The notes beneath the pieces were generated by a model. It had not been told where the DNA came from and did not search any database. It saw only the letters and a program-made list of their open reading frames with translations. A stretch of DNA of 11,554 bases from Chlamydiales bacterium (GTDB taxonomy: Bacteria; Chlamydiota; Chlamydiia; Chlamydiales; JBDQID01), in assembly GCA_047611865.1 (NCBI GenBank), contig JBLFWS010000106.1, positions 1 through 11,554 on the forward strand, written 5' to 3'. Shown piece after piece: positions 1-11,554 of the stretch. The position numbers and the translations under genes were made by a program. Position 1 is the first letter of the stretch; the number at the start of each line of letters is the position of its first letter.

Positions 1-617
1 AACTCCATGTTATTTGCTGGACCACCGGGCACGGGAATAAGGGAAAGAGAATCCGTATGGCCTATGAAGTAGATATCGTAATTACTAAGTCCAGCAATTT
101 GCTCTCCAAGCGACTCATACAGAGGAGTTGATCTCTGAACATCTATGGAATTGGGATTTATTTTATAAGACCCTTTTTCAAAAACTCCATAAGAAGGGAG
201 AACGAGAATAACTTCATCTTCCATGACATTGATTTCTACATCGCCTTCTCTACCAAAATTGGTAATCTTTTTTACTTTTTCGTTTTCTTCTTGTTGTACG
301 GGTTCAGTGAGGTCGATTCGTTTGTACTCTGCAAGAGGGCGTAAAGTGGAAGGTTTTACACTGGAGCGGGCTATGACTCGAGGGCTTTGAGAAACAGAGG
401 GTTTAGGAAGACTCTTTTGCATGGGAGCACTGGCAAACGACTGACTAATACCCAAGGCTCCTTTCATTACACCGATCTGTGCCTGAAATTTGATTTCTGT
501 AATTGTGGACATGGAGAATAGCAAAATAAAAAACACCATTAGCAGTGTCATTAAGTCGGCAAATGTCAGAATGAAAAATGGAGCGGTAAGCTCTTCTGGA
601 GGCTCCGGTACACCCAT
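1..617 (-). CDS. motB: Flagellar stator B subunit (MotB/PomB/MotS family); 5' part only, runs off the left edge
   Basis: Translated by hand. ATG at 617 has an in-frame TAA at 623-621 and an AGGA just upstream. The frame is open for 205 codons to the edge: MGVPEPPEELTAPFFILTFADLMTLLMVFFILLFSMSTITEIKFQAQIGVMKGALG...YDIYFIGHTDSLSLIPVPGGPANNME. It has the single TM helix with the essential Asp (D21, TFAD), a plug-like helix, and the OmpA-like GHTD motif. It lies directly downstream of motA. Confidence 0.95.
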   Translation of the reverse strand, partial: MGVPEPPEELTAPFFILTFADLMTLLMVFFILLFSMSTITEIKFQAQIGVMKGALGISQSFASAPMQKSLPKPSVSQSPRVIARSSVKPSTLRPLAEYKRIDLTEPVQQEENEKVKKITNFGREGDVEINVMEDEVILVLPSYGVFEKGSYKINPNSIDVQRSTPLYESLGEQIAGLSNYDIYFIGHTDSLSLIPVPGGPANNME

Positions 618-649
618 ATTTTACAAGTCCTGGTTTCTTATGCGTCCAA

Positions 650-1456
650 TTATTCGCCACCTGATTCGGCTTCTATTTCTTCTTTAATATCTGCTGTGAC
701 ATAAGTCAGAAGTTTTTTCTGAACAATTCTTGGGTTATCACCGTTCTGAATTGCAAGAATTGCTGCAATAATCATTTGTTTGTATACAACTTCTTCTTTT
801 GTACGTTCCTGCAGTTTACCAACGAGAGGAATACAAAGCATGTTGGCCAGCATACTACCATATAATGTCGTGATCAAGGCAACGGCCATGGCCGGACCGA
901 TGGTGTCAGGGTTGTCTAGGTTGGCAAGCATGGCCACAAGTCCTACAAGAGTTCCAATCATTCCGAAAGCCGGACCCAATTCAGCCCATTTAAGGACCAT
1001 TCCCTGGCCATTCTGGTGTCTGGCCTGTAGGGCATCGAGTTCCAGGTTCATGATCTCCGCAATTTGTTCTGGTGCAGTACCATCAACAGCTAGTTGAATC
1101 CCACCTTTAATGAAAGGGTCTTCAATGTCTTCTGTTCGAGCGTCAAGAGCAAGAACTCCATTTCTACGGGCTTCTGTAGCATAGTCTACTAATTCGAGGA
1201 CCAGTTCTTTAAGAGCTGTGATCTTGGGATTGTAATTAAATGACATCCCAAACACACCTCCAATTTTGGTGACTTTCTCCAAGGGGTAAACCATCACAAC
1301 ACCGAGCATAGACCCCCCGATTGTAATGGCCGCCGAAGAAGGCTGGTAGATAAACAAGGCTATCACAAGGCCGAAGTCGCCACCTGTTGCCAGAAGCATC
1401 CCCATAAATACAAGTCCCCATGCTCCTGCAAATCCTATGATTGTTCCTGTGTCCAT
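650..1456 (-). CDS. motA: Flagellar stator A subunit (MotA/PomA/MotP family), 268 aa
   Basis: Motifs ARRNGVLALD (rotor-contacting charged loop), AVDG, GPAFGMIGTLVGLVAML, GPAMAVALITTLYG and IQNGDNPR. GGAG RBS-like site upstream. Confidence 0.97.
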   Translation of the reverse strand: MDTGTIIGFAGAWGLVFMGMLLATGGDFGLVIALFIYQPSSAAITIGGSMLGVVMVYPLEKVTKIGGVFGMSFNYNPKITALKELVLELVDYATEARRNGVLALDARTEDIEDPFIKGGIQLAVDGTAPEQIAEIMNLELDALQARHQNGQGMVLKWAELGPAFGMIGTLVGLVAMLANLDNPDTIGPAMAVALITTLYGSMLANMLCIPLVGKLQERTKEEVVYKQMIIAAILAIQNGDNPRIVQKKLLTYVTADIKEEIEAESGGE

Positions 1457-1501
1457 CTCTCCACCTGGCTAAAGGGTTAGCAAACCGCTTTGTTTTTTAT
1501 A

Positions 1502-1708
1502 TTAGTAGGCTGTGGCTATTCGTACAGCGTTATGGATCTCTTTTTTATAATTCATAAACAACTCCTGTATTTCTTCTGCGCTTTCCTTTACCAGTAGGCG
1601 ATCCTCGGTTATGAATACGAGGACCGTATCGGCGCCATTTTCTATGGATTTTATCTTGTCCGCATTGATGAAAATTTCTTCACCGGTAAACTTTGTCAGC
1701 TTTATCAT
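1502..1708 (-). CDS. flbD: Flagellar FlbD/SwrD family protein, 68 aa
   Basis: MIKLTKFTGEEIFINADKIKSIE..ADTV......RLLVKESAEEI matches the family pattern MIxLTxLNG..F.LNADLIE.IE..PDT.I......VKES.EE. It sits in the canonical position between flgE and motA. Confidence 0.9.
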   Translation of the reverse strand: MIKLTKFTGEEIFINADKIKSIENGADTVLVFITEDRLLVKESAEEIQELFMNYKKEIHNAVRIATAY

Positions 1709-1803
1709 CTTAATTACCGTAATACCTAATCTAAGGGTTTAGTTTAAAGTGATTTTTATATATTTCTCGTCCCTTTTTAACCGATTTGAGAGTTTGCCAC
1801 TAC

Positions 1804-1835
1804 AAAAAAAATGGGAAGGCATACCAAGCCTTCCC
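1804..1835 (-). terminator. Intrinsic terminator after flgE
   Basis: Minus strand reads GGGAAGGC-TTGGTAT-GCCTTCCC-A-TTTTTTTT: a perfect 8-bp GC-rich stem (1813-1820/1828-1835), 7-nt loop and U8 tract, about 35 nt past the flgE stop. Confidence 0.85.
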
Positions 1836-1869
1836 TGAGAGAGAGGAGATTATTAGTTATTTTAAATGA

Positions 1870-4671
1870 TTAACGCTTGAGGCTCAGGGCTTCCTGGATC
1901 ATATCATCTATAGTTGATATGGTCTTACCTGAAGCACTGTAGCTTCTTTGAGTGACAATCATTTCAGTAAGTTCTTCGGTAATGTCAACATTTGATGCTT
2001 CCAGGGAGCTACCATGAATCTTGGAGTCGATAGAATCAGTAGAGGTTCCCGTGGAAGCTCCCACAGAAAAAACACTATCTAATCCTTTAGTTATTCCACT
2101 GGCATTAGCGTTTGCGGTTTGTGTGTAATAGCTGGAGCCTAGTTTTTGAAGCCCTTCAGGGTTGTCAATATGCATAAGGCCTATTTTTGCCAGGACACGA
2201 GTTTGGCCATTTGTATAAACGCCGTTGATTTTACCGGTGTTTTGTTCAGAAGCTGTCCTGATTAAACTCCCTGAAGTGTATCCATCTACATTACTTCCAA
2301 CTAAAGTGTTATCACCTGTATAGGAGGTGAGGCTACTGAAATCGACAGCAATCGTGGATGTACTTGCTTCAAGAGAGCTCGTTTTAGGAACAAAAGTGAT
2401 AGAACCGGCGCTTTTGTATCTGGCATCACCAGATGACGAGGCATTGGTCAGCACACTTCCTGTGTTAATGTCGAAAGCTACAACGCCGCGGACCGTGGAG
2501 GTGTCAGTAATGCTGTTATATGTGTCCCGATAGATAGTTTTATCAGCAGGTGAGTTTGTTGAAAATGTGTTGACATTAGGCTGTAGAGACACTTGGTATT
2601 TCCATTCGATATTGGTAAGACCTGAAGATCTATCTCGAAGGAAGTAGGAAACAGTGGAGTGTTCATTTCCCTGGCTATCATATACTCTTGTTTGTGAGGT
2701 GACATCAGCCTGAACAAAGGAGTTGCTTTCTCCTTGTTTGCCACTGATACCCTGTGAAATTTCACCTAGAACAGTTCCGAAGTTAGCGCTGTCGCTTCTT
2801 GTAAGTCCTGCTCCAGTATCTGCTGTATTGTTAAGTGGACTGAGCTTTAAATCTCTGAAGTTGCCGTTAGTTGTGCTGAATTTTAAGCGACCATCTTCAA
2901 AAGTTACCCCCGTGGTTAAGTCGGCAGTCAAAGCTCCGTCTTCTGCCAGGCTGGAAAAGCTAGAACTTCGCAAGGTATTTTGTAGAAGGCTTGCAAGTTC
3001 ACCCATAGAGGAAAATTCGTTGTTACTGGCATTGGCATCTCTAGCGACCAGTTTGAATTCTGACAGGGAGGTGCTTCCTAAGCCGTTTGTTGCAGAAAGC
3101 TGAAGGATTCCGTAGCCTGTGCCATTGGCTCCACCGTCTAGACGAAGTCCCGCAAATTCACCGTATTCTGTTGCACTGTTTGTGGTAGAGTAACCATAAT
3201 TTTCCAGTCCTGTAGTATCAAACCAGTTTTTAGTAGCGCTTACAGAGCGGGCGCCCAATGCAAGGCTTGGGTTGGTAATGATATTTCCACTAGAGTCCGT
3301 GCGGGCTTGTGTAGTAGCTGTTGTTGCATTATCAGTCATGGCTATTCCTGTAAATCGATCCAGCATTTCTGTATTGGTGGAGTTCATGACGAGTCGGAAC
3401 TGATTTACAAGTCCTGCTCCATTGAAATTGATTTGTCCGAACTTATCCAAAGTAATGTTTAGATCTGTTGATGCAGCATAATTTGTAAGTTGTGTATCAC
3501 GTAAAGTTCGTTCGACCAAGTCTGTAAGCTGCTGTATATCAGTGAATTCACCACTTCCAATCGTAACTGAACCTCCACCGCCAGTAATGCTGGCTGTTGC
3601 TCTGTTGTAATCGCTAGGTGAAGAGGATACTCGGTTAAAACTGGCTAATATTCTTCCATTAGGGTCTACCATAGTAACTTCAGAACGTAAAACGTCATTA
3701 TGAGTGATGCTTGCTCCGCTAGTCCCTCTGGCGCTTGCTCCATCAGTGAGGTTGCTTATAGCAACAGAACTAGTTGTGATGAGGGTAGTTGGGGTAGCTG
3801 AGGAGAGAGTTATACGTCGGTTTGCGGTATCAATGGCTGTAATGTTACGTTGTACTTGGTTTGTACCCTGGACGATACTTACTGTATTTCCAACAGTAAA
3901 TCCTTCAATCAGATTTGCCGGTGTTGTGCCTAAGACTATAGTTGTCAATCCTGCTTCAAGGGTGGCAGAGGAATCCGTATAATTGACACTGTCTTGATAG
4001 TATCCCGATCCAAAGGTTGATTTGGCACCTGCTGTTCCCACTATAGCGGTACTCATCCGTCCAAAGTTTTCACCACCGGAAAAAAGCTCCCATGCGTTAG
4101 CAATGGTACTGGCGGGGGTCTCAGTGGCGGAAGAATCGATATTGGCTTTTAAGTTTACTTGGGTAGTGGCTTTTGCAGCGAGAGTTCCTGAGTCAATCTG
4201 TATAGCAGCAGCAGAGGGGGAGATCACTTGAGTTTCACGGTTTACGTTAAAACCTTGAATTTTGTTCCCAAGAGAGTCAACAATATTTAGATTGCCATCG
4301 AGGCGAAAGGCTCCATTTCGGGTAAGCATGAGAGCAGCTGTAGCTCCGTTTTTTGCTACGAAAAAATCATCTCCTTCAATCATAAAATCAAATGCACGAC
4401 CGGTTTCAGTTTTAGTACCCTGCTGGAAGATCTTATCAACACTAGCAACTGCGACACCCATTCCCACTTCCTTGGGATTTGTTCCACCGTAGTCAGCCCC
4501 ATCACCTTTGGAGCCTTCTGCCATGACTTGGTAGAAGACGTCAGAAAATGTAGCTCTGTCCTTCTTAAACCCTGTGGTGTTGACGTTGGCAAGGTTATTA
4601 CCAATGATTTCCATTTTTTGAGCCTGAGCCTTGAGGCCGGAAACGCCTGTGAATAAACCCCTGAATCCCAT
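1870..4671 (-). CDS. flgE: Flagellar hook protein FlgE, unusually long (933 aa)
   Basis: N-terminal SGL...IGNNLANVNTTGFK rod/hook motif, TRNGAF, AKATT..NID, VYDSQGNEH, and C-terminal LEASNVDITEELTEMIVTQRSYSAS. AAGGAG RBS upstream. Follows flgD. Confidence 0.96.
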   Translation of the reverse strand: MGFRGLFTGVSGLKAQAQKMEIIGNNLANVNTTGFKKDRATFSDVFYQVMAEGSKGDGADYGGTNPKEVGMGVAVASVDKIFQQGTKTETGRAFDFMIEGDDFFVAKNGATAALMLTRNGAFRLDGNLNIVDSLGNKIQGFNVNRETQVISPSAAAIQIDSGTLAAKATTQVNLKANIDSSATETPASTIANAWELFSGGENFGRMSTAIVGTAGAKSTFGSGYYQDSVNYTDSSATLEAGLTTIVLGTTPANLIEGFTVGNTVSIVQGTNQVQRNITAIDTANRRITLSSATPTTLITTSSVAISNLTDGASARGTSGASITHNDVLRSEVTMVDPNGRILASFNRVSSSPSDYNRATASITGGGGSVTIGSGEFTDIQQLTDLVERTLRDTQLTNYAASTDLNITLDKFGQINFNGAGLVNQFRLVMNSTNTEMLDRFTGIAMTDNATTATTQARTDSSGNIITNPSLALGARSVSATKNWFDTTGLENYGYSTTNSATEYGEFAGLRLDGGANGTGYGILQLSATNGLGSTSLSEFKLVARDANASNNEFSSMGELASLLQNTLRSSSFSSLAEDGALTADLTTGVTFEDGRLKFSTTNGNFRDLKLSPLNNTADTGAGLTRSDSANFGTVLGEISQGISGKQGESNSFVQADVTSQTRVYDSQGNEHSTVSYFLRDRSSGLTNIEWKYQVSLQPNVNTFSTNSPADKTIYRDTYNSITDTSTVRGVVAFDINTGSVLTNASSSGDARYKSAGSITFVPKTSSLEASTSTIAVDFSSLTSYTGDNTLVGSNVDGYTSGSLIRTASEQNTGKINGVYTNGQTRVLAKIGLMHIDNPEGLQKLGSSYYTQTANANASGITKGLDSVFSVGASTGTSTDSIDSKIHGSSLEASNVDITEELTEMIVTQRSYSASGKTISTIDDMIQEALSLKR

Positions 4672-4689
4672 TATTCGCTCCTTCGGTTG

Positions 4690-5118
4690 TTATTGTTGTG
4701 GCTCTTCTACTTTTAAAATTTGGCTAACACTAACTAAACGGCCGTTTGCGAGGCTCAGGACAGGGCCATCGGCTGAGTAACTTACGGACTTGACGGTGCT
4801 TGTTATGAATGCTCCGGAGTCGGGAGACGCAATAGGATCGTTTATTGAAACATCCTTTCCAAGGAGACGCGTAGCCCCCATAAAGGAATCGGTGTTTTGT
4901 CCGTCTGTAAGGGTTTGGTTCAAATTGGACATTTGTTCTAGGGAGCTGAACTGTGCCATTTGTGCCAGCATTTGCTGATTGTCCATGGGGTCGAGGGGAT
5001 CTTGTTGCTGCATCTGAGTCAGCATCAGTTTGAGGAAATCGTCCTTTCCAAGTACATTTTTAGCTTCTCTGGAATCAACAGGAAGTTGATTGGCACTAAT
5101 AATACTATCTATACTCAT
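4690..5118 (-). CDS. flgD: Flagellar hook capping protein FlgD, short form (~142 aa)
   Basis: LGKDDFLKLMLTQMQQQDPLDPMDNQQMLAQMAQFSSLEQMSNLN is the FlgD N-terminal signature. I moved the start from 5124 to 5118 because the GAGGAG RBS (5125-5130) directly abuts the 5124 ATG but is 6 nt from the 5118 ATG. Confidence 0.95.
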   Translation of the reverse strand: MSIDSIISANQLPVDSREAKNVLGKDDFLKLMLTQMQQQDPLDPMDNQQMLAQMAQFSSLEQMSNLNQTLTDGQNTDSFMGATRLLGKDVSINDPIASPDSGAFITSTVKSVSYSADGPVLSLANGRLVSVSQILKVEEPQQ

Positions 5119-5132
5119 TTTCATCTCCTCGG

Positions 5133-6296
5133 TTAAGCGATAATATTCAGGAGTTCATCGCTATCAATTATTTGAGCTTGCTCTTCATCAGGGTCTTCTT
5201 CTGTGGGGCTTATTTGATTATTTTCGTCATAGCTGTAAAATGAACGAATCCATTCCTTCATCGTTTGCTGGTCTTCAACAGAGGTGAAGGATTTACCGTT
5301 ACCGGCATTTGTGTCGTTGTGGTCGGAAACAGATACATCTATTTCTTGAATGTCCATCCCTTTGTTAGAAAAGGAAGCTCTAAGCGTGTCTAAGTTATCT
5401 TGTAAAAGTTCTTTAACGGTGTTGTTTTCTACGACAAAATGTGCTGAGGCACTGGAAGCCTCAATAAGTAGATTGATTTTTACATTTCCTAATACATGTG
5501 GCTTTAAACTAATGTTGATTTCACCAATGCCTTTTTTCACTAACATCCGCATTTGATAACGCACTTGTTCTAGGGCGTTGCTTTTCATCTTTTGAATTTT
5601 TTCTAGATATTCAGAATCGCGACTTAAGCTTGCTGGCTTATTTTCGGAGACGTTTTTACTGGTGGAATTTTCCCCAGTAGATGTACTTGACCCTTGCCCA
5701 TTGCGAGGAAGTTCTATGGATTTTCCGGATTTTCCATCCGTACCTGTAAGAACACTCAAGAGTTTTTGAGAAACTTTTTCGAAATTAGGGTTTCTTACAG
5801 ATGTCAACTTAGAAATATTTTGAAGGGTTGCCAAAACTTTAGCTTTTTCTCCAGGATCAATGGATGAGCGATCCATAACGGATAGGAGCTTGTCGGCACT
5901 TTTGTCAGAAGACTCTACTGAGGCATTGTTTACACTAGCGGAATTGTCTTGACTGCTTGTAGTGCCTGTTCCCTGAGAAGAGTTTCTAGCTCGAAGACCT
6001 TTTTCAGCATGAAGGTTTCGACTTCTTTTCTCTGAATTAAGGTGCTTATTAACTCTTTCTTTAGGATTTCCGTAGCGAACCTGACTGTCATCTGATTCCC
6101 ATGCAGGTTTATGAGAGGAGTTTGTTTGGGAATCTTTTTTTACTTGAGCGGTAAGTTTTTCCACATCCTCACGTTGAGCTGTGGCTATTTCAAATCGCTC
6201 ATGAAAATTACTGTTGGCATTCTCTAGTAAACCGAAAGCATGATTATTTAGATCGAATTTTTTTAGCTTGCCCAGCATTTCCAGAGCATTTTCCAC
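5133..6296 (-). CDS. fliK: Flagellar hook-length control protein FliK, 387 aa
   Basis: Low-complexity S/N/K-rich N-terminal ruler region plus a C-terminal T3S4-like domain (EINISLKPHVLGNVKINL...AHFVVENNTVKELLQDNLDTLRASFSNKG) and an acidic tail. GTG start with a GGAGG RBS 6 nt upstream. Directly upstream of flgD. Confidence 0.88.
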   Translation of the reverse strand: MENALEMLGKLKKFDLNNHAFGLLENANSNFHERFEIATAQREDVEKLTAQVKKDSQTNSSHKPAWESDDSQVRYGNPKERVNKHLNSEKRSRNLHAEKGLRARNSSQGTGTTSSQDNSASVNNASVESSDKSADKLLSVMDRSSIDPGEKAKVLATLQNISKLTSVRNPNFEKVSQKLLSVLTGTDGKSGKSIELPRNGQGSSTSTGENSTSKNVSENKPASLSRDSEYLEKIQKMKSNALEQVRYQMRMLVKKGIGEINISLKPHVLGNVKINLLIEASSASAHFVVENNTVKELLQDNLDTLRASFSNKGMDIQEIDVSVSDHNDTNAGNGKSFTSVEDQQTMKEWIRSFYSYDENNQISPTEEDPDEEQAQIIDSDELLNIIA

Positions 6297-6337
6297 TTGC
6301 CACCTCCGTGTGCAAATATCCTTTGTAATGGAAAATA

Positions 6338-6354
6338 AGCAATTGGCGTGCCAG
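6338..6354 (-). promoter_or_regulatory. Sigma54 (RpoN) -24/-12 promoter for fliK-flgD-flgE
   Basis: Minus strand reads CTGGCACG-CCAA-TTGCT, an exact match to the consensus YTGGCACGNNNNTTGCW. It is correctly oriented, 42 nt upstream of the fliK start. Predicted TSS near 6327. Confidence 0.9.
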
Positions 6355-6400
6355 AAAGAAGATGTCAGAATGAAAGTTTATTTTTTACTGAGAGCATTGG

Positions 6401-6459
6401 TTCGTGTATTAAAATCACGAAATAGCCTCAAAATCAACGATTCCCTAATTTTAATACAC
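6401..6459. promoter_or_regulatory. Overlapping inverted repeats; candidate upstream activator (enhancer) site
   Basis: Perfect 12-bp inverted repeat GTGTATTAAAAT (6404-6415) / ATTTTAATACAC (6448-6459), plus the palindrome TTCGTG-N9-CACGAA (6401-6421). They lie about 75-130 bp upstream of the predicted sigma54 TSS. Function is inferred. Confidence 0.45.
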
Positions 6460-6463
6460 AGCC

Positions 6464-6492
6464 TAGACATTTTCGATTAAACAAGGTAAGCT
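6464..6492 (+). promoter_or_regulatory. Putative housekeeping sigma70-type promoter for ileS
   Basis: TAGACA (6464-6469), 17-nt spacer, TAAGCT (6487-6492), ending 47 nt upstream of the ileS ATG. A second -10-like TATACT at 6504-6509 lacks a -35. Confidence 0.45.
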
Positions 6493-6539
6493 TTACTACT
6501 TAGTATACTTAACAATGTGTAAAAAAGAGAATTTTCGAG

Positions 6540-9500
6540 ATGTTTGACCCAGTAAAGAATGAGTCGGCTGCAGAAAGAGAAGAAAAAGTTTTGCAGCAGT
6601 GGACAAAGGAAGACACTTTCAAAAAATCAATTGAGCAGCGCAAGGGCAAGCCTTCATTTTCCTTTTATGATGGACCTCCTTTTGCCACAGGACTCCCTCA
6701 TTACGGTCATTTGCTTGCTGGAATTATAAAAGATGTCGTCCCTCGTTATAAAACCATGAAAGGTTTTCGCGTTCCTCGCCGTTTTGGATGGGACTGCCAT
6801 GGCTTACCTGTAGAAAACGAAATCGAAAAGTCACAAAACCTTTCGGGAGCAGCATCTATTGATGAGTTTGGGATTGCAAACTTCAATGAGGAATGTCGAA
6901 AAATTGTTTTACGATACACTGAGGAATGGAAGAAAACAGTTAATAGGATTGGTCGCTGGGTAGATTTTGACGATACCTATCGCACCATGGATCTTCCCTT
7001 CATGGAATCCGTTTGGTGGGTATTTAAAGAACTATTTGATAAGGGCTTGGTTTACGAAGGCTATAAAGTCATGCCCGTTTCGGCAAAATTAGGCACCCCT
7101 CTTTCTAACTTTGAAGCTTCTGATAACTATAAAGAGGTTGATGACCCATCCCTTACAGTAAGCCTACCTTTATTGGATGATCTTGATACTGAAATTCTGG
7201 TATGGACGACAACTCCCTGGACTCTAATTTCTAATCTGGCCCTTGCCGTAGGTGCAGATATTCAATACGTTAAAGTTAAAGATCATTCCAGTGCAAAGCA
7301 GTACATTTTGGCACAAGAGCGTTTGAGTGCCTATTACAAAGAAGAAAGCGAATACGAGATTCTTGACAGCTTTCCTGGTAAAAAGCTGGAAGGTTTGCGC
7401 TATAAACCTCTTTTTTCATATTTTGAAGACAGAAAAGAGGAAGGGGCCTTTCGGGTAATTATTGCAGACTTTGTCACGACCAATGACGGTACAGGTGTTG
7501 TTCACACAGCTCCGGGATTTGGTGAAGAAGATTTTTATGCCTGCAAAAAAGAGGGAATTGAAGTCGTATGTCCTGTTACTAACAACGGGACCTTTACTTC
7601 GGAAGTTCCTGAATATGCTGGAGTATTCTTCAAAGATGCTGATAAGGATATTATTAAAAGATTGAAAAGTGAAGGAAGAGTGATACAGCACGGAACTATC
7701 CGTCACCGTTATCCTTTCTGTTGGCGCTCCGATACCCCGTTAATTTACAAAGCCGTAAGTAGTTGGTTCGTAAGTGTAGAAAAAGTCAAAGATAAAATCA
7801 TTGCTGCGAATGAGCAAATTCATTGGACACCCGGCTACCTGAAGCACGGCCGCTTTGGTAAGTGGCTTGAAGGAGCTCGCGACTGGGCTATAAGCCGAAA
7901 TCGTTACTGGGGAACACCTATTCCCCTCTGGCGTTCAGAAGATGGCGAAGTGATAGCTATTGGTAGTGTTACTGAACTTGAAGAGCTTACTGGAGAAAAA
8001 ATTGAGGACCTTCACCGCCATTTCATTGACGATCTGACTTTTGAAAAAGATGGAAAGAAATTTACTCGAATTAAAGAAGTCTTCGATTGCTGGTTTGAAT
8101 CGGGCTCCATGCCATATGCCCAGAACCACTATCCTTTTGAGAACAAAGAAAGTACCGAAGAGAATTTTCCAGCAGACTTTATTGCCGAAGGTTTGGATCA
8201 GACTAGGGGATGGTTCTATACTTTAACAGTTTTGGGAGCTGCATTGTTTGATAAGCCTGCTTTCAAAAATGTAATCGTAAATGGAATTCTTCTTGCAGAA
8301 GATGGCGCCAAAATGTCTAAGAGCCTGAGAAATTATCCTGACCCTACAGAGGTAATTAACAAATATGGTGCGGATGCCGTACGAATGTATTTGTTGCATA
8401 GCCCTGCTGTTCGGGCTGATGACCTTTGTTTTTCAGAAAGAGGAGTAGAACTTTCTCTAAGAAAGATTCTTATTCCTTGGTGGAATGCCTATGTGTTCTT
8501 TATCACTTATGCACGCATTTACAATTGGGAACCTTCTAAGGATTTCAATATTGTTGAATCGAAGCCAGATGCAGTGATTGACCGTTGGATACTATCTCTA
8601 CTTAATCGACTTGTTGAAGATGTGGAAAAAGGGATGGATGATTATGATTTAAGTCGAGCTGTTGAGCCATTTGTTGGTTTTATTGATCAGTTGACGAATT
8701 GGTATATTCGTCGTTCCAGGCGTAGATTTTGGTCAGAAAAGGAAAGTCTTGATCGTGATCAAGCATTTAATACACTATATACTGTTCTTTCTACATTAAC
8801 AGAGATCGCCGCTCCATTTGTTCCTTTTATGAGTGAGACAATGTATAGCAATCTTCGCACTAAGGACATGGTTGCCTCCGTCCACTTGCGAGATTTCCCT
8901 GAGTTTAACGAGGCGGTTCGTGATGAAAGCCTAGAACTTGAGATGGCCGCAGTTCAGATCACGGCTAATTTGGGGCACAGCCTACGAAAGGAACATAAGT
9001 TTAAGGTAAGGCAGCCTCTTCCAGCTGTTCATATAGCCTCTGGTGACCCCAAGATTCTAGAGTTTTTACAGCACCAGAAACACTTGATTGCTGATGAGCT
9101 GAATGTGAAAGAAGTAACTTTTCATGATGACGAGAGTCAGTTTGTGAGTCTCAATGTGAAACCTAACTTCAGGACCCTTGGTAAAAAAGTGGGCAAGTTA
9201 ATGAGGCCCGTTCAGCAAGCGATCACTGATTTTAATCAAGATCAGATTGAAATGTTGCTGAATGGAATAGAGGTAAAAATCACAGTTGAAGGGCAAGATA
9301 TTCTATTGAAACCCGATGATGTGGAAGTTCGTCGCGAAGTTCGTGAAGGAATGATTGCGGCTAACGAAGATGCCATTACTGTCGTGCTTGATACAAGCAT
9401 TAATGATGAGCTTCGAATGGAAGGTTTGGCTCGTGAGGTGGTAAACAAAATTAGCACTATGCGAAGAGATAGTGGTTTTGATGTTGCTGATCGTATTTAT

Positions 9501-9698
9501 ATCCAAATAGACACGACTGACCTTGTGCGTGAATGCTTTGAAGTTCATGGGGACTATATTAAGGGAGAAGTCTTGGCTTTGGGAGTTAGTTTTGAATTTT
9601 GTAAAGAGGGTATAGAGTGGGATTTAAATGGTGAAAATTCAGTTATTTATCTCACAAAAGCTGATGCTACGAAAGATCACCCTGTAAAATCTTCCTAA
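6540..9698 (+). CDS. ileS: Isoleucine--tRNA ligase, type 2 (IleRS2), 1052 aa
   Basis: DGPPFATGLPHYGH (HIGH motif), GWDCHGLP, CP1 editing motifs WTTTPWTL and GTGVVHTAPGFGEED, WAISRNRYWGTPIP, DFIAEGLDQTRGWFY and KMSKS. The long C-terminus (KVRQPL, ELNVK, EGLAREVVNKI..MRR) lacks the type-1 zinc finger. Confidence 0.98.
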   Translation: MFDPVKNESAAEREEKVLQQWTKEDTFKKSIEQRKGKPSFSFYDGPPFATGLPHYGHLLAGIIKDVVPRYKTMKGFRVPRRFGWDCHGLPVENEIEKSQNLSGAASIDEFGIANFNEECRKIVLRYTEEWKKTVNRIGRWVDFDDTYRTMDLPFMESVWWVFKELFDKGLVYEGYKVMPVSAKLGTPLSNFEASDNYKEVDDPSLTVSLPLLDDLDTEILVWTTTPWTLISNLALAVGADIQYVKVKDHSSAKQYILAQERLSAYYKEESEYEILDSFPGKKLEGLRYKPLFSYFEDRKEEGAFRVIIADFVTTNDGTGVVHTAPGFGEEDFYACKKEGIEVVCPVTNNGTFTSEVPEYAGVFFKDADKDIIKRLKSEGRVIQHGTIRHRYPFCWRSDTPLIYKAVSSWFVSVEKVKDKIIAANEQIHWTPGYLKHGRFGKWLEGARDWAISRNRYWGTPIPLWRSEDGEVIAIGSVTELEELTGEKIEDLHRHFIDDLTFEKDGKKFTRIKEVFDCWFESGSMPYAQNHYPFENKESTEENFPADFIAEGLDQTRGWFYTLTVLGAALFDKPAFKNVIVNGILLAEDGAKMSKSLRNYPDPTEVINKYGADAVRMYLLHSPAVRADDLCFSERGVELSLRKILIPWWNAYVFFITYARIYNWEPSKDFNIVESKPDAVIDRWILSLLNRLVEDVEKGMDDYDLSRAVEPFVGFIDQLTNWYIRRSRRRFWSEKESLDRDQAFNTLYTVLSTLTEIAAPFVPFMSETMYSNLRTKDMVASVHLRDFPEFNEAVRDESLELEMAAVQITANLGHSLRKEHKFKVRQPLPAVHIASGDPKILEFLQHQKHLIADELNVKEVTFHDDESQFVSLNVKPNFRTLGKKVGKLMRPVQQAITDFNQDQIEMLLNGIEVKITVEGQDILLKPDDVEVRREVREGMIAANEDAITVVLDTSINDELRMEGLAREVVNKISTMRRDSGFDVADRIYIQIDTTDLVRECFEVHGDYIKGEVLALGVSFEFCKEGIEWDLNGENSVIYLTKADATKDHPVKSS

Positions 9699-9727
9699 TC
9701 TCAGCTTAAGATAGAATATCCTAATAT

Positions 9728-9780
9728 TGCCACAGATGGTTTAGTTAAAAAATCATCTGTGGCAGCAATTATTTTTTTTT
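9728..9780 (+). terminator. Stem-loop and U-tract after ileS, probable intrinsic terminator
   Basis: TGCCACAGATG (9728-9738) / CATCTGTGGCA (9754-9764) form a perfect 11-bp stem, extendable inward by one G-U and three A-U pairs. It is followed by GCAATTA and T9, so the U-tract is offset from the stem by about 7 nt. Confidence 0.7.
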
Positions 9781-9894
9781 ATTTTCATATTTTTCATTTT
9801 TTCCTTTACCAAATTTTTGTTATTTTTTACATATTACTTAATATGAGCGAAACATATGATTTTGTATCTCTTGATTTAGAGGAACTGATACGTT

Positions 9895-11382
9895 TTGGCT
9901 ATTAAATTGCTCCGACATTTTTTTCCTATCACATGGAAAGAAGCTCCAAGATTTTTTCTTCTGATTTCGATTTTTTTCACTGTTACATTCAATACAAAAA
10001 TTCTTAAGATTTTGAAAGATGCTTTAATAATTACTGCACCCGATTCTGGAGCGGAAACTATTCCATTCCTGAAGACCTGGATGCTCATACCTTTCTCGTT
10101 AATTTTGATAAATCTGTACGACAGACTTTCTGATTGGCTCAGTAAAGAGAAGTTGTTTTACTATTTTACGGGTGGGTTTCTGGCATTTTTTCTATTTTTT
10201 ACCGTGGTACTTTTTCCTAACAGAGAAATGCTTCATTTTCATGGTTTATGTGACTATCTTGAGTATTTGCTTCCTCTGGGTTTTAAAGGGTTTATCTCGA
10301 TTTTTCGTCATTGGACATTTTCTCTTTTTTATGTAATGGCAGAAATGTGGCCAACCATTTTGTTGTCATTTATATTCTGGAATTTCATAGCTTGCAATGT
10401 CACTGAAGGCGAGGCAAAAAGGTTTTATGGCCTATTTTCGTTAGATTTCGGAGGACTGGCAGCAGGAGGTATTACGGTTTTACTTTCAAGAGTAGACTGG
10501 GGCTTTCTATATGTAGATAAATGGCACGGGTATATGTCAGGCTTAGTGGGGGTGATAACTGTCGCAGGCTTGGCACAAATGGGCCTGTACCATCTATATC
10601 AGCGGAAATACATTAAGGAAGCCCCAATTAAACAGCCTGTCCCTGAGAAAGGTGCTTCTCGTAGTAAGATGACTCTTAAGGAAAAGTTTCAGTCCATAAG
10701 CGAAAGTCCCACCTTATTTTACATTGCGGTTTGTGTATTTTGTTTTGAATTTACTGATCAGTTAGTGGAAGTTGTGTGGAAGGATCAAGTAAGTCAGCTT
10801 TATACTACTCCGTGGGAATTCAGCGAGTACATGGCAAAGATTACTTGGATGACAGGAGTCCTGGGGATACTTGTGGTTTTTGGAATTTCAAGCTTTATAC
10901 TCCGGGAAAAGCCTTGGATTGTGGGGGGGCTTATTACTCCAATCATACTTATCTCTACTAGCCTTCTATTTTTTTCGGTAATGCTTATTCCTTCATTTGC
11001 AAATTTTCTTGGACGGCTTAGTGGTAAGGATCCCATGGTGCTAATTGTAACTATTGGATCCGTTAGGTCTATCTTAATGCAGGTGGCCAAATATACCTTT
11101 TTTGATAATACAAAAGAGCTGGCTTTTTTGCGATTCCCTGAGGAGATACGTCTTCGTGGTAAAGGCCTTTCAGATGCTTTCGCTTCTCGTCTAGGGAAGT
11201 CTGTTTCCTCTTTGTCTCACCAGAGCTTATTGCTAGGTCTTCATTCACTAACAGTCGCAGCACCAGTTATTGCAATAATGGTTCTGTCTTCGGCAGCTGC
11301 TTGGTTGCATTCTGTATTTTCACTGGGTAAAGCTATTTCTACATCCCAAGAGGAAGGTGGAGAGTTTTCAGCTTCTGCTTGA
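9895..11382 (+). CDS. TLC/NTT family nucleotide transporter (Npt1/Npt2-like), substrate uncertain, 495 aa
   Basis: Multi-pass membrane protein with NTT motifs FPI..KE, FN..IL..KD, SGAETIPFLKTW, FSLFYVMAEMW, EAKRFY, LVEVVWK, KYTFFDNTKELAF and RLGKS. TTG start with AGAGGA upstream; an in-frame TGA at 9886 precludes an earlier start. Confidence 0.92.
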   Translation: MAIKLLRHFFPITWKEAPRFFLLISIFFTVTFNTKILKILKDALIITAPDSGAETIPFLKTWMLIPFSLILINLYDRLSDWLSKEKLFYYFTGGFLAFFLFFTVVLFPNREMLHFHGLCDYLEYLLPLGFKGFISIFRHWTFSLFYVMAEMWPTILLSFIFWNFIACNVTEGEAKRFYGLFSLDFGGLAAGGITVLLSRVDWGFLYVDKWHGYMSGLVGVITVAGLAQMGLYHLYQRKYIKEAPIKQPVPEKGASRSKMTLKEKFQSISESPTLFYIAVCVFCFEFTDQLVEVVWKDQVSQLYTTPWEFSEYMAKITWMTGVLGILVVFGISSFILREKPWIVGGLITPIILISTSLLFFSVMLIPSFANFLGRLSGKDPMVLIVTIGSVRSILMQVAKYTFFDNTKELAFLRFPEEIRLRGKGLSDAFASRLGKSVSSLSHQSLLLGLHSLTVAAPVIAIMVLSSAAAWLHSVFSLGKAISTSQEEGGEFSASA

Positions 11383-11554
11383 TTGGGAGTTTTTTGATCT
11401 TTGTTAGGATGGCTAGACCCCAATGATTTTTTTTCCATGATTTATCGTAAACAAAGAAAAGGATAGGTCCCAATATGTTGTCAACAACGGCAACCTTTGC
11501 CAGGGCAAAGGCGCAGGTAGCACAAAGTGAAGCTTTGACAATGGAACGAAGTCG
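11339..11554 (-). CDS. Possible 3' end of a small membrane protein entering from the right edge (weak DUF2061-like resemblance)
   Basis: Open frame from the edge to TAG at 11341-11339: RLRSIVKASLCATCAFALAKVAVVDNILGPILFFVYDKSWKKNHWGLAIL...GM*. It overlaps the NTT 3' end by 44 nt. A plus-strand start at 11475 is a competing interpretation. Confidence 0.22.
   Translation of the reverse strand, partial: RLRSIVKASLCATCAFALAKVAVVDNILGPILFFVYDKSWKKNHWGLAILTKIKKLPIKQKLKTLHLPLGM

Follow-up and report, generated by a model that had tools for sequence, protein, structure and literature searches.

A flagellar hook and motor locus head to head with ileS in an environmental member of the Chlamydiota, with a putative sigma-54 promoter and a sodium-type stator signature

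The closest described relatives of the system considered here are the flagella encoded by three marine chlamydial single-cell genomes (SCGC AB-751-O23, AG-110-M15 and AG-110-P3), for which the main text of Collingro 2017 (PMC5604735) reports complete flagellar and chemotaxis gene sets. The same text describes the chlamydial flagellar proteins as monophyletic and distinct, reads the flagellum as an ancient trait subject to differential loss, proposes motile extracellular stages and records that swimming has never been observed in any chlamydia; its supplement 1 likens the gene order to that of Thermotoga. Later studies of metagenome-assembled genomes (MAGs) describe flagellar genes from further chlamydial lineages (Koestlbacher 2021, PMC8242063; Dharamshi preprint, 10.1101/577767). 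Here we analyze an 11,554-nt stretch of DNA (the window), which is the whole of contig C106 (JBLFWS010000106.1) of a 272-contig, 3.59-Mb MAG with an estimated completeness of 95.5% and contamination of 2.5%. Its minus strand carries the flagellar genes fliK-flgD-flgE-flbD-motA-motB′ and its plus strand ileS followed by a TLC/NTT transporter gene. We consider it highly probable that the window truly belongs to the chromosome of an uncultured, environmental member of the Chlamydiota, in which a predicted sigma-54 hook unit and a sodium-type motor unit stand in an ancestral head-to-head arrangement with ileS. Gene content, phylum, linkage and the conservation of promoter, terminator and residue signatures are direct observations.

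Comparison with the 2017 genomes places the locus among them: the phylum is the same, a complete flagellar and chemotaxis set is again found beside a type III secretion system (T3SS) of the non-flagellar kind, and the layout is similarly dispersed, with flgBC-fliE lying apart from flgFGAHIJN and flgKL-fliW-flagellin. The genome is nevertheless a different one, a 3.6-Mb MAG present in runs labelled ice metagenome. A flagellated chlamydia as such was already published in 2017. Relative to the 2017 main text and supplement 1, what appears to be new is the promoter, the terminator, the stator signature, the size of the hook and the linkage to ileS: neither that text nor that supplement mentions flgE, motA, fliK, flbD, sodium, stator or RpoN, and the literature on chlamydiae, flagella and sigma-54, as far as it was searched, did not show the same details.

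The genes of the window were defined by a listing of open reading frames (ORFs) together with Pfam and NCBIfam family scans. The features are as follows:

3–617, minus strand: motB′, the N-terminal 205 codons, encoding a transmembrane helix with Asp21 and a plug (PF13677 MotB_plug, 8.8e-15)
650–1456, minus strand: motA, stator subunit (PF01618, 2.4e-28)
1502–1708, minus strand: flbD (PF06289, 5.6e-18, full length)
1813–1835, minus strand: intrinsic-terminator-like hairpin with T8, 35 nt past the flgE stop codon
1870–4671, minus strand: flgE, hook protein of 933 aa (Pfam matches only at 8–36, 97–161, 658–798 and 889–931)
4690–5124, minus strand: flgD, hook cap/scaffold (PF03963, 1.8e-23; NF007197, 122.7 bits)
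5133–6296, minus strand: fliK, hook-length control (PF02120, 1.2e-17; GTG start, GGAGG 6 nt upstream)
6297–6539: fliK–ileS intergenic gap, 243 bp
6339–6353, minus strand: sigma-54 type −24/−12 element TGGCAC-N5-TTGC facing fliK; the motif begins 57 nt before the start codon
6400–6466, plus strand: copy of a dispersed ∼66-nt intergenic repeat with a sharp 3′ end
6540–9698, plus strand: ileS, type-2 (eukaryote-like), with TIGR00392 and the DUF5915 C-terminal domain
9727–9765, plus strand: terminator-like hairpin (16 pairs) and T-run after ileS
9895–11382, plus strand: TLC/NTT transporter (PF03219, 413.5 bits); the TTG start is a prediction from the ORF list
11339–11554, minus strand: frame still open at the contig end and without a family match; it goes on for fewer than 60 codons in contig C190 and is probably not a gene

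A first-pass annotation of the window, made from its letters, had described flagellar genes diverging from ileS across 243 bp and a TLC/NTT gene beyond ileS, and the ORF, Pfam and NCBIfam scans recovered the same arrangement. It had also called the flagellar operon intact. All frames are indeed open, but motB is cut by the contig end. That interruption is due to the contig end only: window positions 1–127 are identical (100%) to positions 1–127 of contig C221 reversed, exact 127-nt end overlaps put the contigs in the order C108-C221-C106-C190, and C221 opens with an ORF for the OmpA-like C-terminus of MotB, followed by a FliL-like ORF (168 aa; a weak match, E 1e-4, just under the cut-off) and by fliM, after which the unit stops. 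Six uninterrupted flagellar genes had further been claimed; their adjacency stands, but they do not form a single unit, as a strong hairpin and T-run (1835–1813, minus strand) follows flgE. Lastly, no transposase, integrase, tRNA or target-site repeat had been seen at the junction. A Pfam scan of the window proteins found no transposase or integrase domain and a tRNA search of the window found none (an Rfam search of the window likewise gave no family at E values up to 1); the junction is not free of repeats, however, since the dispersed ∼66-nt repeat sits at 6400–6466. As a separate observation on the assembly, 113 of the 272 contigs pair with another contig through exact 127-nt end overlaps, many of them unbranched (for example C108-C221-C106-C190, C109-C202, C8-C250 and C227-C268), and the assembly could be scaffolded much further.

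The arrangement at the junction is widely shared. Among eight genomes in which the fliK locus was read, fliK and ileS are divergent neighbors in six: that of the window (G000) and G028, G009, G022, G402 and G031, the last five each belonging to a different chlamydial family. Linkage of fliK to ileS is confined to flagellated families and that of ileS to NTT to the genome of the window, although a close relative, whose FlgE (91% identical) and NTT (90% identical) both come with a longest contig of 27,556 nt, may share it. The distribution of gene orders indicates that the head-to-head arrangement descends from an ancestor that at least six chlamydial families have in common.

The physical continuity of the window is apparent from sequencing runs. 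Three runs labelled ice metagenome (X1, X2 and X3) contain it at 99% identity or more, with few single-base differences, and the source organism seems to live in ice-associated communities. In X1 one 9,663-nt contig spans window positions 1948–11554; in X2 one 16,897-nt contig spans the whole window plus 5,287 nt leftward (C221 minus the 127-nt overlap). Depth in these two assemblies is even on both sides of the junction (63.3 and 12.8). The GC content of the window matches that of the genome (41.6% versus 41.5%), and the tetranucleotide distances of its two halves lie inside the genome range (82nd and 14th percentiles). A peak in read depth at 9651–10036, where the genome contains no repeat, is probably AT-rich low-complexity cross-matching.

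The repeat in the junction is one of a dispersed set. Its consensus is ∼66 nt long with a sharp 3′ boundary (...ACACGACCTAG; the consensus is also given as ...CTCAAAATCAGACATTCCCTAATTTTAATACACGACCTAG), and the genome has 41 occurrences of its anchor motif; 30 of the 32 longer copies are intergenic. Copies are found at about 40 sites besides the window (e.g., C4:30386-30437, C190:492-525 and C36:23458-23515), whose placement follows no constant pattern relative to the genes downstream; the repeat matches no Rfam family, and assemblies made from short reads break at it.

Beyond the linkage itself, the fliK side of the junction carries a conserved promoter-like element. At 6353–6339 on the minus strand the sequence TGGCACGCCAATTGC is oriented toward fliK, with its GG and GC exactly 10 nt apart. 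All eight genomes have such an element 48–73 nt upstream of fliK, within flanks that do not align; in G402 TCGC replaces TTGC. Similar elements precede flgF and flgB, and, with the patterns used, neither sigma-54 nor sigma-28 sites were found upstream of fliF, flhB, flgK, flgN, flgL, fliW, csrA or the flagellin genes. RpoN is encoded at full length, as are two activators of the NtrC type, each combining receiver, AAA and HTH_8 domains. From the element and its conservation we infer that the fliK promoter is sigma-54 dependent. Only a single NtrC-type activator is known from Chlamydia; one of the two present here may be dedicated to the flagellum. The two activator genes are on contigs C17 (L146:1045-2436) and C6 (L147:1042-2445), and of the six sites in the genome that fit the strict sigma-54 consensus, two are also on these contigs.

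At the other end of the hook genes, the hairpin after flgE consists of eight pairs (six of them G-C) followed by T8, and a comparable hairpin and T-run lies no more than 80 nt past flgE in eight of eight genomes although the sequences differ. A terminator at this place would split the hook unit from the motor unit. Scans of the window for sigma-70 promoters and for terminators gave counts at the level of shuffled sequence (21 versus 22.4 and 11 versus 11.4, respectively), and from the terminator scan we kept only the two intergenic hairpins, after flgE and after ileS. The spacer between flgE and flbD ranges across genomes from ∼130 nt to 1.8 kb, and the two modules also occur apart: in G031 the hook module is present but the 6.2 kb read past flgE contain no motor genes, and in G004 motA-motB-fliL-fliM is present but the 4.9 kb read upstream of it contain no hook genes.

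The region upstream of flbD gave no match to sigma-54, sigma-28 or sigma-70 patterns. A motif is visible there: CTTTAAA, a spacer of ∼17–18 nt and (G)TTATAG, within 1709–1760 of the window and at the same place upstream of flbD in loci L136, L139, L152, L153 and L142. It finishes 10–15 nt before the flbD start codon in about six of seven genomes, and may be a promoter of the motor module or a site of translational control.

The hook protein itself is enlarged. FlgE measures ∼920–950 aa in all eight genomes read, and in the window protein an insert of ∼465 aa (residues ∼190–655) is nested in domain D2. A database search with residues 190–655 returned 31 proteins, every one a FlgE of 921–958 aa; all four with an organism name are chlamydial. 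One of the matches is the FlgE of the single amplified genome AB-751-O23 from the 2017 study, 47% identical over the insert, and the window FlgE is the orthologue of this protein. In an AlphaFold model of the protein (mean predicted local distance difference test score 64) the D1 and D2 domains match known structures at Z 12–13, and the insert splits D2. No named fold could be assigned to the insert, which gave only generic beta-barrel matches at Z 7–9 (∼9 for residues 229–310). The best solved match to the whole protein is Campylobacter jejuni FlgE (sequence E 1.2e-44; Foldseek E 1.7e-19).

The stator genes carry a signature of their own. MotA has T169, T196 and T197, the threonine triad of sodium-type stators, together with S201; in an alignment to Vibrio PomA (8bri) these place threonine at the T158, T185 and T186 sites and serine at the A190 site. 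Hu et al. state that the proton-driven stators in their comparison have alanine at the T158 and T185 positions. Seven of seven chlamydial orthologues carry the triad, as do 66 of 67 close database relatives. Among proteins of solved structure MotB is closest to Vibrio PomB (E 1.2e-8), its Asp21 corresponding to D24 of PomB. A sodium-driven motor is plausible, and a sodium-type stator would fit the sodium-based energetics of chlamydiae.

That the host genome is chlamydial is supported by several markers. A search with the IleRS protein of the window against named species genomes returned 80 loci, and a FastTree phylogeny was built from 79 rows. The top loci (57–71% identity) are almost all titled Chlamydiae, Chlamydiales, Parachlamydiales, Simkaniaceae, Rhabdochlamydiaceae or Waddliaceae; those at 46–55% belong to Kiritimatiellae, Planctomycetota, Myxococcota and others. 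The phylogeny puts the window IleRS within a clade of 62 rows (support 100; 41 Chlamydiota, 3 Verrucomicrobiota and 18 without a phylum label), opposite the remaining 17 rows (Myxococcota, Planctomycetota, Bdellovibrionota and Kiritimatiellota). The protein thus nests, by this single-gene phylogeny, inside the Chlamydiota. It scores 989.1 bits to TIGR00392 (cut-off 621.4), matches DUF5915 (PF19302) at 5.4e-64, and lies far under the MupA and MupB exception models (777 and 750; cut-off 1900). FHIPEP occurs at two loci (C109, and the joined contigs C8 and C250), as does FliP (C269 and C15), which implies a flagellar export apparatus plus a non-flagellar T3SS. CesT-type chaperones are encoded, UPF0242, which we take to be a chlamydial family, is located on the flagellar contig C21, and there are seven TLC copies; seven NTT paralogues are a typical count for environmental chlamydiae.

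The remainder of the flagellum was sought by family searches of the genome and Pfam scans of the matched contigs. It is distributed as follows:

C1: flgB, flgC and fliE
C21: flgF, flgG, flgA, flgH, flgI, a flgJ-like gene, flgN, flgK, flgL, fliW and five flagellins
C5: fliF, fliG, fliH, fliI and fliJ
C109 and C202: flhB, flhA, cheA (cut in two where a contig ends), a double-CheW protein and a methyl-accepting chemotaxis protein (MCP)
C269: fliO, fliP, fliQ, fliR and csrA
C268, C227, C85, C122 and C35: additional short flagellin genes

Among the families searched, the export gate, MS/C ring, rod, L/P rings, hook, junction proteins, filament and stator are all encoded, and every flagellar frame is open. 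The only hint of expression is a single 151-nt contig within fliK from RNA run X7, a run that does not demonstrate transcription.

Two features of this inventory may be noted in passing. The genome has at least ten flagellin-family genes, a large number for 3.6 Mb: the five on C21 (L027:12475 to L028:5453) comprise four tandem genes of ∼610–640 aa and one of ∼580 aa, and the others are short (∼265–290 aa). Both fliW (C21, L028:5797-6246) and csrA (C269, L134:2887-3198, just after fliOPQR) are also encoded. Bacillus and Campylobacter have a FliW-CsrA-flagellin partner switch, and by analogy the presence of both genes suggests control of the same kind.

The trait is sparsely distributed. The phylum sample comprised ∼400 genomes in one order with that of the window, and 10 of 400, the window's genome included, gave a strong match to FliG (E up to 2.3e-9, in frames of ∼350 aa), each of them from a different family. 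Matches at E up to 0.001 occur in 26 of 400 and matches above the cut-off in 15 of 400; we infer that the weaker ones, with frames of ∼480–520 aa, are MgtE-like proteins. Relatives of MotA form a cluster of 67 proteins at 53–100% identity, beyond which identity drops to 49% or less; the four members with an organism name are all chlamydial. Past this drop, Planctomycetota account for 9 of the 14 named non-chlamydial relatives, a hint, based on similarity and not on a tree, at ancestry within the Planctomycetes-Verrucomicrobia-Chlamydiae (PVC) superphylum.

These data bear on the broader claims of the first-pass annotation. It had called the IleRS chlamydia-like, which agrees with the 62-row clade (support 100) and its 41 Chlamydiota rows, and had read the contig as part of a probable flagellated, nucleotide-parasitic member of the phylum, a reading supported by the IleRS placement, the seven NTTs, the T3SS and the near-complete flagellar and chemotaxis set. 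An inventory of the other flagellar genes had been proposed and yields flgBC-fliE, flgFGAHI, flgKL, fliFGHIJ, fliM, fliOPQR, flhBA, cheA/cheW/MCP and csrA, all with open frames. The check for a chimera across 6297–6539 came out in favor of a true junction: single-run contigs from X1 and X2 cross it, and the same junction exists in five further families. Its description of chlamydial flagella as rare rather than unprecedented fits both the 10 of 400 genomes with strong FliG and the 2017 publication.

Taken together, the analyses suggest the following model. The hook module fliK-flgD-flgE would be driven by the sigma-54 promoter and closed by the intrinsic terminator, and its products would be the length ruler, the cap and the enlarged, ∼930-aa hook subunit. 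The motor module, flbD-motA-motB and onward to the fliL-like gene and fliM, would supply a stator whose ion-path residues resemble those of the sodium-driven PomAB and MotPS, and the motor would run on sodium. The sigma-54 regulon of C. trachomatis has been linked to the change into the infectious form (PMC7482065); given that link, a flagellum of the late extracellular stage is a reasonable inference, and it agrees with the scenario put forward in 2017. By this analogy sigma-54 would time the synthesis of rod and hook to a late developmental stage, it may couple flagellar assembly to development in this organism, and the extracellular stage would swim toward hosts.

A number of points weigh against this account. 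Motility, ion use and sigma-54 dependence are predictions from sequence. The strict sigma-54 motif occurs six times in the genome against ∼4.2 expected, which is no enrichment, and the count by itself is uninformative. MotA scores beneath the NCBIfam cut-offs of its best models, MotP (233.7 bits; cut-off 394) and PomA (227.4; cut-off 341), so that it is filed as neither, although it may work like them; furthermore, each of the 53 next-best non-chlamydial MotA relatives also has the triad, which is thus the mark of a large and mostly uncharacterized subfamily. Linkage is not universal: in G297 fliK has no ileS beside it or anywhere within 8.4 kb; in G001 fliK and ileS are on separate contigs, with no ileS in the 1.6 kb from fliK to the contig start; and at the 80 more distant IleRS loci no flagellar or NTT gene lies within 8 kb of ileS. 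The bridging runs X1 and X2 may be the assembly's own source, and X3 breaks at the repeat, with no bridge over 6462–6603. Six-taxon trees of IleRS and FlgE are incongruent and poorly supported, with inner-branch supports of 43–96.

Of the competing explanations, the one that survives best accepts the flagellar genes as chlamydial but holds that the apparatus is not for swimming: it might serve secretion, adhesion or host contact, or be a relic in the course of being lost, like the handful of orphan flagellar genes in Chlamydiaceae. The absence of any observation of swimming in a chlamydia, as recorded in the text of Collingro 2017, agrees with this, as do the patchy distribution of flagellar genes across the phylum (strong FliG in 10 of 400) and the partial sets at some of the loci read, namely the motor genes of G004 without an adjacent hook module and the hook genes of G031 without motor genes in 6.2 kb. 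Yet in the genome of the window the frames are open throughout; stator, C-ring, L/P rings, at least ten flagellins, FliW-CsrA and CheA/CheW/MCP are all encoded; the ion-path residues of the stator are kept in seven of seven orthologues; and promoter and terminator are kept in eight of eight genomes. Open frames, a full set of parts and conserved residues, promoter and terminator fit purifying selection on a rotating machine, and we regard the non-swimming alternative as unlikely.

Recent horizontal transfer of the flagellar cluster from a non-chlamydial donor is a good deal less probable still. The order flgE-flbD-motA-motB-fliL-fliM is of the Thermotoga/Firmicutes/spirochaete type, and the lack of congruence between the single-gene IleRS and FlgE trees could be read in the same sense. 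A recent arrival sits poorly, however, with a 465-aa FlgE insert that is confined to chlamydial FlgE (31 of 31 matches), with the same ileS-side locus in six families, with the native composition of the window and the lack of mobile-element genes, and with nearest named non-chlamydial MotA relatives that are mostly (9 of 14) Planctomycetota, members of the same PVC superphylum; the published trees, as described in the text of PMC5604735, likewise show chlamydial flagellar proteins as monophyletic and distinct.

A chimera or binning contaminant, joining a chlamydial ileS/NTT half to a foreign flagellar half, might be suspected from a 272-contig MAG with an estimated 2.5% contamination and from a dispersed repeat in the junction at which the X3 assembly breaks, but it is excluded in practice, as contigs of X1 and X2 run across the junction with the same depth on either side (63.3 and 12.8, respectively), the junction recurs in five independently assembled families and the organism-named relatives of FlgE and MotA are chlamydial.

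Returning to the chromosomal piece with its hook and motor units, a wider and considerably more tentative proposal can be made, one that we hold possible though doubtful: that chlamydial flagella constitute a distinct lineage derived from a PVC ancestor, with a sigma-54-wired rod and hook, a sodium motor and a ∼465-aa hook extension, serving an infectious swimmer particle, and with hook genes and ileS locked together before at least six families split. Flagellated chlamydiae overturn the textbook view of the phylum as non-motile, a point made in 2017. What the present locus would add is a conserved, putative sigma-54 promoter tying hook synthesis to the chlamydial developmental sigma factor, and a sodium-type stator suited to marine and ice habitats. 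On the practical side, the giant, phylum-specific FlgE could act as a marker gene for flagellated chlamydiae in metagenomes, and the conserved fliK–ileS junction offers a genomic landmark for tracing the gain and loss of flagella across families.

It remains to compare the parts of the locus with the systems they most resemble. The transporter beyond ileS shares with chlamydial Npt1/Npt2-type transporters the same full-length TLC domain (PF03219). The domain scores 413.5 bits (Pfam cut-off 21), residues 4–479 covering profile positions 10–489 of 491; the TIGR00769 score, 366.3, is below the cut-off of 387.2. Identity to the six paralogues in the genome is 29–36%, and only three database relatives reach 44% or more, all others being at 40% or below. 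These values indicate a divergent, fast-evolving, lineage-specific paralogue. The 16-pair terminator hairpin after ileS would make the gene a separate transcription unit, and an NTT beside ileS is conserved in none of the relatives whose ileS neighborhoods were read, so the adjacency of the two genes carries no wider meaning.

For the hook, the nearest structural counterpart is C. jejuni FlgE (5jxl, 5az4; 851 aa), which is likewise oversized and likewise has extra domains inserted in D2. The likeness is one of architecture only: the window FlgE scores below the epsilon-type model TIGR02489 (174.7 versus 412.85), its insert has no sequence relative outside chlamydial FlgE, and the shared architecture is not a claim of homology between the two inserts.

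For the motor, the comparison is with PomAB of Vibrio alginolyticus (8bri, 8brd and 8zyv), with which MotA shares the threonines of the triad and, at the A190 site, a residue other than isoleucine. Overall similarity to PomA (E 2.1e-46) is nevertheless weaker than to the MotA of Clostridium sporogenes (5.8e-53).

For the proposed regulation, the counterparts are the RpoN systems of Campylobacter/Helicobacter, in which rod and hook genes are RpoN-dependent, and of Vibrio/Pseudomonas, in which class III genes are. These bacteria belong to phyla unrelated to chlamydiae. In common with their RpoN-driven flagella the genome of the window has NtrC-type activators with receiver domains and −24/−12 elements that stand before fliK-flgD-flgE, flgB and flgF and not before fliF, flhB or the flagellin genes.

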